A DNA stretch of 61,572 nt, the filler included, from Candidatus Nezhaarchaeota archaeon WYZ-LMO8 (lineage in GTDB: Archaea; Thermoproteota; Methanomethylicia; Nezhaarchaeales; WYZ-LMO8), in the NCBI GenBank assembly GCA_004347965.1. It is 16 parts of 16 records of this genome, joined end to end, with 100 filler letters (N's around TTAATTAATTAA, not from the genome) between each part and the next. Parts side by side here need not be neighbours in the genome. Positions count along the whole stretch, not along the records: positions 47,904 to 51,366 come from QNVF01000073.1; positions 51,467 to 54,906 come from QNVF01000074.1; 14 more parts are not named here. One strand, written 5' to 3'. The position numbers are program-made. Of this stretch, positions 51,001-54,000 are shown piece by piece (position 1 is the first letter of the stretch; every line of letters starts with the position of its first letter).

Positions 51001-54000
51001 GGTCTATGAGGTGAATCCGTGCAGAAGACACCTACTTCGGGTATATCTTTCTCATTGAGCCCAAGTAGCTTAAGGCGCTTCGGTTTTACCTTCAATGTTT
51101 TTCTTTGAGTCTCTGAAACTTTATGCAATAACGTTATGACTATTAGGTGCGAGAAGCCCTCTATTCCATGAAGACCCTCAACATACTCCTCGTAGACTTC
51201 TAATATTCCTTCAACTCCCTTTAAGCTGGCTTTAACCTCTTCATCGCTTAAATTGACGTGTACTACACCTATAGGCTTAAGTTGAAGAGTCATTCCTTCC
51301 CACCCACCAGCCTAAGCATACGAAGATTCTTCCTGAGAGTTACATATTTTTCATCGCATCTCTCTCNNNNNNNNNNNNNNNNNNNNNNNNNNNNNNNNNN
51401 NNNNNNNNNNTTAATTAATTAANNNNNNNNNNNNNNNNNNNNNNNNNNNNNNNNNNNNNNNNNNNNGTGAAGGAGGGTAAAATAACAAGCATAGATGAGA
51501 TATTCGCCAACAACCTAGTCATAAAGGAGCCGGAGATAGTAGATGCTCTACTACCAGATTTGAAGCATGAGGTAATCGATGTCGGCATAGTTCAAAAGCA
51601 GACAGACACCGCCTAGCGCCTGCTGGGCGGCTGTAAGCTGGCGAGACATCAAGGTTTAAAGTAGTTGTAGCTGTAGGCAACGAGTCTGGTTATGTCGGAC
51701 TAGGAGCAGCTAAAGCTAAGCAAATGAGGGAAGCAATAGACAAAGCGATAGTTGAGGCCAAGCTAAACATAATTCCCATAAGGCTGGGCTGTGGAAGCTG
51801 GGAGTGTAGGTGTGGTAGACCTCATAGTGTGCCAATAAAGACTTGGGGTAAAGCTGGAAGTGTAGAGATAACGTTGATTCCAGCTCCTAGAGGAACAGGT
51901 CTCGCTGCTGGTGATACGGCTAAAATAGTCTTGAGACTAGCTGGGGTTAAAGACGTGTGGACATTCAGCAAGGGCGAAACGCGATCCAAGGAGAATATGG
52001 CTAGAGCCACGCTTGAAGCTCTTAGAAACACGTTAAGCTTCAAGTTTACGAAGGACTGGATGAGAGCATGACAAAGAAGCTGTATGCGGTCATAAGGCTT
52101 CGAGGTCGTGTTGGTCTTCCTCCAGACGTAAAGTTCACGCTTCGCTTACTAAACCTTACGAGGAGAAATCACTGCACGATAGTTGAAGCAACGCCATCAA
52201 TTGAAGGAATGCTGAAGAAGATCTCGGGCTACGTAACATATGGGGAGGTGAGTGAAGAAGTACTAGCAGCTTTATTGGAGAGGAGGGGTCGATTGAGGGG
52301 TGATGAGCACCTCACAATTGATCACATCAAGAAGCTGGGGTTTGAGAGCTTTAAGGACTTGGCTAAAGCAATACTTGAAGGCAAAGTAAGTTTACGTAAC
52401 ATACCTAACTTGAAGCCGGTCTTTAGGCTGCATCCACCTTCTGGGGGATTTAAGGGAGCAATAAAGAAGCCCTTTGAGCAAAGAGGAGAACTCGGTTATA
52501 GAGGTTCAGCAATAAACGAGCTTTTATTGAGAATGATTTAGCAAGTACTTAATCCATTAAGGCACTAATAATGTCTCTACGCTTAACAGCGGGAACACCT
52601 AGTTGCTCTAACACTTCATGTACAAAGCTTAGCAGTCTACACTTAGCATTTAATAGCACCTTCTCTCTAGCCCTAACTTCTTGCAGCTCCTTGTCTATTA
52701 CTTTGAACACGTTCTTTATCTCAGATAGTACAGCATCAAGCTCCTTACTCTCCTCAATCCTCCTCTCCAATACCGTTAAGGTATCCTTAAAGTAGTCGGG
52801 TACCTCACCTACAACATCGTGTACCTCTATTTCGCTGTAGCCCTTAAACACGTTAACGGAGAGAGATATTGGTCTAACAAGCTCGTAGTACTTCCTTGAT
52901 GGACCTAAGGAGCCCGCCTTAACTTCATAAGACCTTATTAGCCCTGCTCGCATCAGTACATTTATGTGCTTAAGCACAGCTTGCTGGCTAACATTAAGTT
53001 CTCTTGATAACTGAAGCAAGTACTTAGGCTCTACAGCTAAAAGCTCTAATATCCTTCTACGTGTCTCATTTCCTAAGACTTCAAGTAGACTTAATATACG
53101 GCGAGCCACTTTGCTTCACCTTCACTATCCAAATCACTCCTTTTCTAATGAAAAGAATAGCTTAGAAAGATTTAAATATTTCTCACCTCTGGTTACTAAC
53201 CAGAGGTGAGAAACTATGTGGTGGAGACCTAGAAGAATCTCAAGAATCTTCGATGAAATAGAGAGGGAATTTGAGGAGATAGAGGAAATGATTGATAGAA
53301 TGTTTAGAACGTTCACGAAAGCGCCAAGAGAAGCTGGTGGGGCAGTTGTCGAAGGACCCTACTTCTATGGCTTCAGCATAACAATAGGGCCTGACGGTAA
53401 ACCAGTAATACAAGAGTTTGGCAACGTTAGACCGTCACGATGGGGTGTTGAGAGGAGCGATGTTAGAAGACCCTACGTTGAGACTCACATAGACTCGAAA
53501 GCAGGTGAGATCAAGGTTATAGCGGAGCTTCCAGGAGTAGATAAGGAGTCCATTAAAGTAAATGCTGCGGAGGATGTAGTGACGATAAGAGCTGAGCAAG
53601 GAGATAGAAAGTACTACGCTGAAGTCAAGCTACCTGAGAGGGTAGATCCGGCAACCGCTAAGGCAAGTTACAGAAACGGTGTACTCGAAGTTGTGCTAAA
53701 ACTTAAGGAGAGAGTGAAGGAAGAAAGGGGCTACGAGGTTAAGATCGAGTGAAGTCTCTCATCCTCATTTTTGCATTTATTTACACTTATGCATTTATTA
53801 ATGCTTTAAGGTGATACCTCATGAGCAGCAAGAGCTCAGCTTCAGCTACCTTGCGAGTTGCAGAAGCAAGAGCTCGCGATGTGGGTAGGGGCATAGCTAG
53901 GGTAGACCCCTCAGTAATGTCTCAACTGGGCATAAACACGGGTGACGTCATAGAGATAGTGGGAAAGAAGAAGACAGTAGCGATATGTTGGCCTGGTTAT

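Follow-up and report, generated by a model that had tools for sequence, protein, structure and literature searches.

The ribosomal protein gene rps5 (uS5) of Candidatus Nezhaarchaeota archaeon WYZ-LMO8 is interrupted by a 29-nt insert that is very probably an archaeal bulge-helix-bulge (BHB; hBHBh′) intron in the uS5 pre-mRNA. We base this reading on the restoration of the reading frame upon removal of the insert, covariation of the predicted structure across four families, purifying selection on the exons, the single copy of the gene, the splicing machinery encoded in the genome, and a further BHB insert in the gene for aIF5B. The source organism is a hot-spring archaeon with a genome of 1.35 Mb. 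Within the window (the whole stretch of DNA that was analysed, 61,572 nucleotides), the locus lies on the 3.4-kb contig C72 (51467-54906), one of the 78 contigs of this metagenome-assembled genome (MAG).

All features of the locus are on the plus strand. The 3′ part of exon 1 (51467..51607, 47 codons), delimited by tblastn with homologues, ends with VQKQTD. Comparison with relatives indicates that the contig begins within this exon, which lacks its first 16 codons, and in a genome of the same genus (G006) the rps5 reading frame opens with an ATG 189 nt before the splice site. The intron (51608..51636) comprises a hairpin (51609-51630) followed by CTGT (51631-51634) and contains an in-frame TAG stop codon (51614-51616). 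Exon 2 (51637..52071; 144 codons plus a stop codon at 52069-52071) begins with AGETSRFKV and encodes the remainder of the S5 N-terminal domain together with the S5 C-terminal domain, with Pfam matches to PF00333 (S5_N, positions 17-65) and PF03719 (S5_C) and an NCBIfam match to NF003125 (positions 67-209 of 213). The following gene, rpl30 (uL30; 52068..52541; PF00327), has a 4-nt overlap with the rps5 stop codon and is collinear in relatives; this operon setting identifies the locus as the ribosomal protein cluster. The rps5 gene is single-copy in WYZ-LMO8 and in 60 of the 61 relatives searched. The genome-wide survey's note had placed a 29-nt insert between VQKQTD and AGETSRFKV at positions 142-170 of C72, which are the window positions of the intron given here. 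It had also stated that the downstream open reading frame (ORF) has no start codon for 29 codons, and indeed the first ATG, GTG, or TTG in the exon 2 frame is codon 30 (51724). Its description of that ORF as having only the S5 C-terminal domain is right for the longest ATG-started ORF (115 of about 207 codons, beginning at ATG 51724) but not for exon 2, which keeps the S5_N match.

The strict motif described in the note, with its outer helix, ACAG/CTGT central helix, two bulges, and inner helix, was reproduced from the sequence. An outer helix of 3 bp joins exon 1 to exon 2 (CAG, 51599-51601, with CTG, 51638-51640), and a central helix of 4 bp pairs exon 1 with the intron (ACAG, 51602-51605, with CTGT, 51631-51634). 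The 5′ bulge ACA (51606..51608) and the 3′ bulge AAG (51635..51637) carry the predicted EndA cuts, between 51607 and 51608 and between 51636 and 51637, respectively, and an inner helix of 9 bp, including one G-U pair (51609-51617 with 51622-51630), closes a GCCT loop. The CAG-ACAG 5′ strands sit in exon 1, where they make up a Gln codon, a Thr codon, and the first base of an Asp codon. Folding of the single sequence returned the central and inner helices at −26.4 kcal/mol (z −2.6; 1 of 200 shuffles was equally good), with the outer 3 bp shifted by one register and drawn as a 2×2 loop, and RNAalifold with 14 sequences recovered the exact hBHBh′ register. Against the structure, the outer helix has 3 bp only, with an A-G mismatch in 2 of 20 sequences.

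Canonical cuts, placed behind the second base in either bulge, excise precisely the bases missing from homologues and restore the frame, since removal of 51608-51636 fuses QTD with AGE without a gap relative to 93 intron-less homologues. Strict motifs with an inner helix of at least 9 bp number 37 on both strands of the 1.35-Mb genome, or about one per 73 kb of strand. Because such motifs are rare and the one in rps5 coincides to the nucleotide with the insert defined by homology, the agreement is more than chance. A self-splicing group I or group II intron, or a curated RNA family, was also considered and rejected: the insert measures 29 nt as opposed to hundreds of bases, and an Rfam scan of 51467-52200 (E ≤ 1) returned nothing relevant, its one match being a chance one elsewhere in the gene (19.9 bits versus a gathering threshold of 160).

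Inserts of 19 to 34 nt were present at the identical codon boundary in 20 species genomes from four families, namely, f1 (10/10), f3 (4/4), f49 (4/4), and f55 (2/2), the last two of which belong to another class than f1 and f3. Our recount of a first set of 30 loci gave the figures of the survey, with inserts in 14 (22 to 34 nt) and none in 16. The insert lengths were 29, 29, 30, 30, 30, 30, 30, 28, 22, and 29 nt in the 10 loci of f1 and 31, 28, 31, and 34 nt in the 4 loci of f3. The 93 insert-less loci were all continuous across the Asp-Ala boundary. Among metagenome contigs, 5 of 80 loci carried the insert, and these were the five nearest relatives; a metagenome scan for a near-identical intron-less copy, which could represent a spliced transcript, found none. 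When 401 genomes of the phylum were scanned with the motif pattern, 17 matched, with one match each and solely at the rps5 site, and the reversed control pattern gave zero matches in the same 401 genomes. In a uS5 tree of 73 rows (L003-L040 without L022, L081-L110, and L114-L119), deep nodes were unresolved; the intron state requires four changes, one of which is forced by well-supported branches, and the tree therefore cannot separate a single origin from multiple origins.

Helices of the motif are maintained by changes on both of their sides. As claimed in the note, RNAalifold found compensatory changes in 8 of 16 pairs of the 14-sequence set, including an exon-intron pair of the central helix (columns 15/48), and both-side changes were seen in 9 of 16 pairs with 20 sequences, although these counts exaggerate the number of independent events since the 20 genomes are related. 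With the 20 sequences, 97.4% of 303 cells were paired (100% in the central helix and 96.7% in the outer helix), slid registers paired in at most 45.6% of cells, and none of 500 shuffles matched the observed pairing or covariation score. The inner helix ranges from 4 to 12 bp in length (9 bp in the window), and its first pair may be C-G, G-C, U-A, or A-U. A synonymous exon change, ACA/ACG, tracks TGT/CGT in the intron, and the Gln codon of the outer helix is CAG in 20/20 intron-bearing sequences, whereas intron-less sequences with Gln use CAA in 28 cases and CAG in 17. Exon bases thus serve both helices and codons, which places a visible constraint on synonymous sites. The dN/dS ratio was 0.014 to 0.056 in the 7 exon comparisons, out of 14, that allowed its calculation, and pN was 0.018 to 0.097 versus a pS of 0.42 to 0.95 in 14/14; judging from these sequence comparisons, both rps5 exons are under strong purifying selection.

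According to profile and structure matches, the genome has genes for both EndA subunits, alpha and beta, and for RtcB and Archease. The EndA family profile PF01974 matched twice, to ORFs of 185 amino acids (alpha, on contig C12) and 178 amino acids (beta, on contig C2). One EndA gene most resembles catalytic subunits from heterotetrameric enzymes (3p1z_B, 3ajv_B, and 2zyz_B); for the other, the nearest structure is the EndA-like half of 5x89, and beta-subunit models match it as well. The rps5 mRNA is most likely spliced before translation, and we infer that EndA cleavage and RtcB ligation take place in vivo. The transcript would fold such that exon CAG-ACAG pairs with the intron CTGT and the exon CTG, so that each strand exposes one 3-nt bulge, with 4 bp between the two. 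A heterotetrameric (alpha-beta)2 EndA would cut after the second base of each bulge, at the two sites given above, and leave 2′,3′-cyclic phosphate and 5′-OH ends. RtcB, with Archease, would then ligate the exons into VQKQTD-AGETSRF and hence full-length uS5, and the intron would be released, probably as a small circle. An unspliced mRNA would yield only a truncated N-terminal peptide, as the third codon of the intron is a stop.

A BHB insert of 33 nt also interrupts the gene for aIF5B (contig C77, 21331-21363), whose exons match positions 4-44 and 45-591 of profile NF003078. This insert is present in 15/15 genomes of the order, and family f2 has it although the rps5 intron is missing there. 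Among 36 candidates of a genome-wide scan (inner helix of at least 8 bp, length of at most 60 nt), rps5 and aIF5B were the two that passed a frame test, in which the joined frames had to span at least 35 codons to either side and to be closed in the unspliced sequence. At loose thresholds the BHB scan is unspecific, with 246 of 4,949 candidates joining open frames versus 234 when the cut was moved by one base; the genome-wide strict-motif scan is informative solely for long inner helices. No clear BHB emerged when the region of the cbf5 insert was folded (z −0.08). The genome is rich in tRNA introns, and the cut rule yields the 37/38 intron of its own tRNA-Leu(CAA). Compared with ARAGORN predictions, the strict scan matched 0 of 8 eligible tRNA introns, and a relaxed local scan placed 1 of 12 exactly at the ARAGORN boundaries and 1 more within 1 nt; for the others, either a strict motif is absent from the position given by ARAGORN or that position is wrong.

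The note had cautioned that there were no RNA data; some were found, but the ligated junction was not among them. Metatranscriptome X1 consists of contigs and contains 46% of the sampled words, and X2, X3, and X4 are raw-read runs. One X1 contig (record 4) matches exon 1 up to exactly 51607 and then joins back to exon 1 codon 4, and two others (records 3 and 5) stop at 51605. The ligated joint from 51607 to 51637 was not seen among the X1 contigs listed (6 of the 11 that align), and the X1 depth is zero over 51611-51754. In X4, 10 reads (5 pairs) were obtained, and the sole pair across the site reads through the unspliced insert; this pair may be DNA or antisense RNA, since its orientation is opposite to that of the other four. 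X2 and X3 yielded zero reads and hence no test of splicing. With no such joint listed and the junction region nearly uncovered, splicing is neither shown nor excluded by these data. A joint from 51490 to 51760 (side 24) was set aside, as it came from a 680-nt contig of another organism, and inspection by eye of G006 and ten other relatives revealed no second BHB at rps5 codon 3/4 that would explain the back-joint.

The sole RNA signal, an end at the predicted 5′ cut that is joined to exon 1 codon 4 and not to exon 2, would also fit cleavage without productive ligation. The BHB would then be an EndA site for decay or regulation, with uS5 coming from elsewhere or from rare read-through; the yeast splicing endonuclease is described as initiating mRNA decay (PMC10485636). 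We consider this highly unlikely, given that rps5 is single-copy in WYZ-LMO8 and nearly all relatives searched, that both exons are conserved at low dN/dS, and that the genome has RtcB and Archease. In addition, a gene that was never joined would not retain an insert that restores the phase exactly in 20 genomes.

Translational bypass or programmed frameshifting, in which the mRNA would keep the insert and the ribosome would cross it by jumping the hairpin or changing frame, has hardly any chance of being the explanation. Bypass has precedents in phage T4 gene 60 and in the short elements skipped in certain mitochondrial genes of yeasts. Like these, the rps5 inserts are short GC-rich hairpins (19 to 34 nt) with a stop soon past the last sense codon (after 3 to 7 codons in 20/20 inserts), and spliced RNA was not seen in the metatranscriptome data. 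However, insert lengths modulo 3 are 0, 1, and 2 in 6, 8, and 6 of the 20 inserts, so that no single frameshift works. For a hop, the take-off codon would be GAC or GAT, whereas the last insert triplet is TAA in 15, TAG in 4, and TAC in 1, which amounts to a landing match in 0/20. Moreover, the conserved features are the BHB geometry, the covarying exon-intron helix, and the exon-exon pairing, none of which is needed for hopping.

The 115-codon ORF from ATG 51724 could instead suggest a split gene, with uS5 made as N-terminal and C-terminal polypeptides that assemble on the ribosome; such gene splitting occurs in some genome-reduced archaea (PMC2237900, PMC3655853). Yet the start is not conserved, as the first ATG, GTG, or TTG in the exon 2 frame ranges from codon 4 to codon 87 depending on the genome. 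In WYZ-LMO8, a start at ATG 51724 would drop 29 conserved codons, some of S5_N 17-65 among them, and these codons are under purifying selection. A split gene would also leave the BHB covariation and the exact placement at a codon boundary unexplained, and we find it hard to credit. The probability that assembly or binning went wrong, or that the gene is a decaying copy, as might be suspected from a gene that runs past the start of a short contig in a 78-contig MAG, is negligible, since the insert is present in 20 species genomes of independent assembly and in 5 metagenome contigs, shows compensatory changes, and sits between strongly selected exons. The two caveats raised in the note, that exon 1 runs to the contig start and that C72 was assigned by binning, are largely answered: the gene is complete and inside large contigs in relatives, some insert-bearing genomes being assembled in 1, 2, or 9 contigs, and C59 and C72 together match, in collinear order, a single uninterrupted region of another genome of the genus, the DNA being about 85% identical.

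The rps5 insert is a genuine BHB pre-mRNA intron of a kind already known, in a new host gene. The survey had found no earlier report of such an intron in a ribosomal protein gene, which agrees with our full-text literature search; this search, which reached few subscription journals, returned only cbf5 (coding sequence) and HVO_1309 (5′ untranslated region [UTR]) as archaeal BHB mRNA introns described so far. Reviews of 2020 and 2023 still list only cbf5 and one 5′-UTR case, one of them expecting more to be found, and cbf5 figures as the sole archaeal protein-coding sequence described with an endonuclease-type intron since 2002, with introns in Desulfurococcales and Sulfolobales (Watanabe 2002; Yoshinari 2006; Yokobori 2009, PMC2738675). 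Like rps5, cbf5 has a short intron in its coding sequence at a BHB-like structure, kept in some lineages and lost in others (PMC2738675), and belongs to the ribosome/RNA machinery. The two differ in host, a ribosomal protein versus a pseudouridine synthase, and in motif, which is a strict hBHBh′ in rps5 and an unconventional (relaxed) BHB in most cbf5 introns (PMC2738675). They also differ in lineage, the rps5 intron occurring in a Nezhaarchaeota/Methanomethylicia-type order and in two families of another class, and splicing has been demonstrated experimentally for cbf5, whereas it is predicted for rps5. In Haloferax volcanii, the archaeal splicing endonuclease likewise acts on an mRNA, that of HVO_1309, and not on tRNA or rRNA alone, but the intron lies in the untranslated leader and leaves the frame intact (PMC7714728, PMC10485636), whereas that of rps5 interrupts the frame; the H. 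volcanii endonuclease is a homodimer (PMC10485636), in contrast to the heterotetramer predicted here.

The BHB is defined by two 3-nt bulges with a 4-bp helix between them (PMC6379350), and BHB introns of tRNA and rRNA share this definition with the rps5 intron, as well as its predicted cut positions, enzymes, and end chemistry; tRNA and rRNA splicing produces 5′-OH and 2′,3′-cyclic phosphate ends (PMC4090602). They differ in that the rps5 exons are coding sequence, and helix bases must also fit codons. In eukaryotes, IRE1 cuts the structured HAC1/XBP1 mRNA at two sites, an RtcB-type ligase joins the exons, and the short intron sets the frame. The splicing proposed for rps5 resembles this unconventional splicing (mentioned in PMC13149111 and PMC8718801) in combining an endonuclease with RtcB-type joining, but HAC1/XBP1 involves another endonuclease and another RNA motif and is a stress-regulated switch, and no shared membership is claimed.

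Gene callers will truncate or split rps5 in these lineages. As uS5 is a common phylogenomic and completeness marker, annotation, marker alignments, and completeness estimates are affected. At 29 nt and with a strict motif, the intron is a clean substrate for biochemistry. A broader interpretation, which we regard as doubtful, is that the tRNA-splicing machinery gates the translation apparatus, with uS5, aIF5B, and possibly Cbf5 needing EndA and RtcB, that an exon 1 circle accumulates, and that the site shared by two classes is very old with precise losses or was spread by mobility. The early in-frame stop in 20/20 introns would abort translation of unspliced mRNA, and a circular exon 1 RNA of about 180 nt would account for the joint that leads back from 51607 and for the deeper RNA coverage of exon 1. 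If such gating were true, the supply of ribosomes and initiation factor would depend on the cell's capacity for RNA processing. With a strictly canonical BHB intron in the gene for a universal ribosomal protein, kept in four families and two classes, and a second one in aIF5B across the order, mRNA splicing by the tRNA machinery is no oddity of a single gene.

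The gene for ribosomal protein uS5 (rps5) opens contig C72 (51467-54906) in two pieces on the plus strand. Its first reading frame is open from 51467 to 51607 and then enters ACC GCC TAG, and the second runs from 51637 to a stop at 52069-52071. Exon 2 matches positions 17-65 of Pfam S5_N, S5_C, and positions 67-209 of the 213 in the NCBIfam uS5 model NF003125, so the break sits within the N-terminal domain. As the genome-wide survey's note had claimed, the exon-2 frame has no start for 29 codons, the earliest candidate being codon 30. Around the intervening 29 nt, an outer helix (CAG 51599-51601 with CTG 51638-51640) is followed by a central helix (ACAG 51602-51605 with CTGT 51631-51634), two 3-nt bulges on opposite strands (ACA 51606-51608 and AAG 51635-51637), and a 9-bp inner helix (51609-51617 with 51622-51630, one G-U pair) with the loop GCCT. 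The sequence thus bears out the 29-nt bulge-helix-bulge (BHB) intron proposed in that note in every detail of its helices and bulges, and the motif agrees with the canonical definition in a passage of PMC6379350, i.e., a 4-bp helix between two 3-nt bulges at the exon-intron boundary. In a single-sequence fold (-26.4 kcal/mol, z -2.6), the inner and central helices were recovered, and the outer helix, which is weak at 3 bp, came out shifted by one register. In BHB splicing, cleavage follows the second nucleotide in each of the two bulges. Applied to tRNA-Leu(CAA) of the same genome, this rule yields the same 37/38 intron as the ARAGORN call; applied to rps5, it excises 51608-51636 and nothing else, so that Ala follows Asp in frame. 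We hold it highly probable that the insert is a BHB pre-mRNA intron.

The source genome (G000) is an archaeal MAG of 1.35 Mb in 78 contigs (43.5% G+C, 93% complete). Among the reservations attached to the finding were that exon 1 runs to the contig start and that C72 was assigned by binning. Contig C59, which carries the upstream neighbor of rps5 and lies outside the window, terminates in rpl18 and an intergenic region. Both C59 and C72 align at 85 to 86% to one uninterrupted stretch of G006, a genome from the same genus, with a gap of 71 nt, and the contig break thus hides 16 rps5 codons and the start. Relatives carry complete rps5 genes within large contigs, and their assemblies include ones of 1, 2, and 9 contigs; in the relatives inspected from f1, a family of the source's order, the start ATG lies 189 nt upstream of the splice site, preceded by a GGTGA-like box. 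Both reservations are largely answered by these data, and nothing in the alignments suggests mis-binning of C72. Among named genomes, the uS5 gene is closest to those of a Candidatus Nezhaarchaeota MAG, with 85% identity, and of a Candidatus Methanomethylicia MAG, with 72%. The window consists of 16 contigs (C57, C58, C60-C66, and C68-C74) with N runs and a TTAATTAATTAA linker as separators, for instance, at 51367-51466.

The rpl18-rps5 spacer (C59:4160-4245, locus L122:560-646; locus L082:2140-2260) comprises about 100 nt of non-coding DNA with an A/T-rich box (AAAGCTTAAAATAAAT). Given this box and the near-identity of the spacer in G000 and G006, rps5 may be transcribed from a promoter of its own within the ribosomal protein cluster. 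Directly downstream, rpl30 (Pfam) overlaps rps5 by 4 nt. No rpl15-secY follows (52549-54906); rpl30 is succeeded by a divergent ArsR/TrmB-type HTH gene on the minus strand (52549-53109), an Hsp20 gene (53216-53752), and a CDC48-like AAA ATPase (53821 onward, running off the contig), and this order is conserved in same-genus genomes over at least 2.1 kb.

The reported compensatory changes in 8 of 16 pairs were reproduced by RNAalifold on 14 sequences of the order, which returned exactly the hBHBh' form. Across 20 sequences, standard pairs occupy 97.4% of 303 cells, and both sides have changed in 9 of the 16 pairs (37 cells), although such counts overstate independent events because the genomes are kin. 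None of 500 column shuffles reached the observed pairing or covariation score, and sliding the 3' partner by 1 to 3 columns lowered pairing to 16 to 46%. The first inner-helix pair is C-G in 10 sequences, G-C in 5, U-A in 4, and A-U in 1; despite the kinship, several pair types at one position cannot have come from a single event. The pairing of exon with intron in the central helix also covaries, as had been claimed: the Thr codon of the exon, ACA in 2 genomes and ACG in 18, goes with TGT or CGT in the intron, so that a synonymous exon site tracks the intron. The Gln codon is CAG in 20/20 and the Ala codon GCT in 18/20 intron-bearing rps5 genes, and both are chosen freely in intron-less ones.

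A search of 61 related genomes with exon 2 gave a single match in 60. Among the 30 best loci, 14 carry inserts of 22 to 34 nt where the homology passes from exon 1 to exon 2 (10/10 in f1, including G000, and 4/4 in f3) and 16 carry none, the same tally as in the earlier survey. When all 15 genomes available for the order were covered, the insert was found in 14, the sole f2 genome being without it. In a sample of 401 genomes of the phylum, three more, belonging to f49 and f55 outside the source's class, had the open frame truncated in the same way among the matches listed (150 of about 400). Searches centered on them found the insert in 4/4 f49 and 2/2 f55 genomes, at the same codon boundary, with lengths of 23, 19, 20, 19, 24, and 23 nt and a central helix that is uniformly ACGG/CCGT. 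An exon-intron-exon pattern matched 17 of the same 401 genomes, once each and always in rps5, and its reversed control matched nowhere in them; the pattern was built from known cases, and a strongly divergent intron at the rps5 site would escape it. Of 80 loci from named genomes, 77 are uninterrupted, 2 are the Nezhaarchaeota and Methanomethylicia MAGs mentioned above, and 1 is without its upstream region. The five closest of 80 metagenome loci (72 to 90% identity) have inserts of 30 or 31 nt; the remainder comprises 72 with no insert, 2 without an upstream region, and 1 odd alignment.

A ribosome might instead hop over an insert retained in the mRNA. This is unlikely, given that the take-off codon (GAC or GAT) never equals the three bases that close the insert (TAA, TAG, or TAC), and hopping would require neither the bulges nor the exon-intron helix. 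Insert lengths leave remainders of 0, 1, and 2 modulo 3 in 6, 8, and 6 genomes, which excludes a single frameshift and, together with a stop within 3 to 7 codons in every insert, a read-through peptide. A pseudogene is excluded as well, since rps5 is present in one copy in G000 and both exons, compared with those of seven f1 relatives, show non-synonymous divergence of 0.018 to 0.097 against synonymous divergence of 0.42 to 0.95 (dN/dS of 0.014 to 0.056 where computable, with synonymous sites saturated in 7 of 14 comparisons).

RNA from the locus was available in one metatranscriptome kept as contigs (X1), which contains 46% of the sampled C72 words. Eleven of its contigs align to 51467-52541, five of them beyond those listed. 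Summed depth is 52 to 87 over exon 1 and 16 to 58 over exon 2 from 51755, exon 1 having about two to three times the RNA depth of exon 2. Coverage of 51611-51754 is zero, and the 51607-to-51637 joint is absent from the X1 contigs listed. Three contigs end at 51605-51607. One of these, record 4 (110 nt, depth 17.9), matches 51563-51607 with 3 differences in 45 bases and hence derives from a close relative. Past 51607 come 39 bases that, judged against G006, encode rps5 codons 4 to 16, and the sequence then proceeds from 51467, which makes record 4 an RNA-derived joint leading from the predicted 5' cut backwards to codon 4 within exon 1. It could represent exon 1 circularized into an RNA of about 180 nt; alternatively, ligation or template switching could have occurred at an RNA end at 51607. 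Under either reading, record 4 places an RNA end precisely at the predicted cut, and it is distinct from the productive junction. No BHB was found at rps5 codon 3/4 in G006 and the other relatives inspected. Only one of three raw-read runs yielded any reads on the locus (5 pairs). The lone pair across the insert is unspliced and, as its orientation is opposite to that of the other four, may stem from DNA or antisense RNA. Splicing of rps5 in vivo is therefore what we infer.

G000 encodes two proteins of the splicing endonuclease (EndA) family. The 185-residue protein has its nearest matches in 3p1z_B, 3ajv_B, and 2zyz_B, the catalytic chains of heterotetrameric enzymes from Aeropyrum and Pyrobaculum. 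For the 178-residue protein, the nearest match is the EndA-like half of 5x89, a Methanopyrus construct, and beta-subunit models are matched as well. The pair is predicted to represent the (alpha-beta)2 form, which PMC6379350 and PMC5829648 credit with a broad substrate range. RtcB and Archease are both encoded; for this family, a passage of PMC4090602 describes 5'-OH and 2',3'-cyclic phosphate ends and RtcB-type ligation.

A strict-motif scan of the whole genome gave 4949 loose candidates, which joined open frames no better than a control (246 versus 234 with the cut shifted one base); the inner helix reaches 9 bp or more in only 37 of the candidates. Among 36 with an inner helix of at least 8 bp and a length of at most 60 nt, rps5 and aIF5B/IF-2 are the two that connect long frames which are closed without splicing. 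The aIF5B insert (C77:21331-21363, locus L121:532-564, outside the window) measures 33 nt, with an inner helix of 11 bp and an outer helix of 6 bp, and the exons match NF003078 positions 4-44 and 45-591. Inserts of 29 to 33 nt with compensatory helix changes occupy this site in 15/15 genomes of the order, among them the f2 genome from which the rps5 intron is absent. We regard it as a second predicted protein-coding BHB intron, sister to that of rps5. The cbf5 gene also lies in two frames (TIGR00425 positions 8-70 and 66-322), separated on the minus strand by 22 nt, as judged by eye, between ...GGTL and DPKVTG... (C1 ~76640-76660, locus L219:2200-2360). A single-sequence fold of this region gave no clear BHB; the insert may be a cbf5 intron of the known type, in a lineage not previously described as having one, and cbf5 is perhaps a third intron case in G000. 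ARAGORN called introns in many tRNA genes. Those of 875 and 963 nt in tRNA-Arg and tRNA-Pro (C4:9566-10528, C38:7504..78) are probably artefacts or split arrangements, and a strict BHB at the called site is missing in most of the other 14 calls.

On a uS5 tree of 73 sequences, whose deep nodes are without resolution, intron state requires four changes, of which well-supported branches force only one. Because the f2 genome clusters with f3 (support of 93), its absence of the rps5 intron would be a precise loss, like that proposed for cbf5 in PMC2738675. The introns of f49/f55 and those of the order reflect either common descent or separate gain. In passages of PMC2738675, PMC7714728, PMC10485636, PMC6379350, PMC12397907, PMC13149111, PMC4090602, and one 2026 preprint, cbf5 is the only coding-sequence case and HVO_1309 a 5'-UTR case; the reference list of PMC2738675 includes two earlier predictions, in a rudivirus and in Sulfolobus genomes. 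In the full-text literature outside subscription journals and supplements, we found no paper combining ribosomal protein S5 with bulge-helix-bulge or Nezhaarchaeota with intron, in agreement with the survey's statement that no such intron had been reported in a ribosomal protein gene. As far as searched, rps5 is the first ribosomal protein gene with a BHB intron. This intron is strictly canonical, four families retain it, and aIF5B carries its sister.
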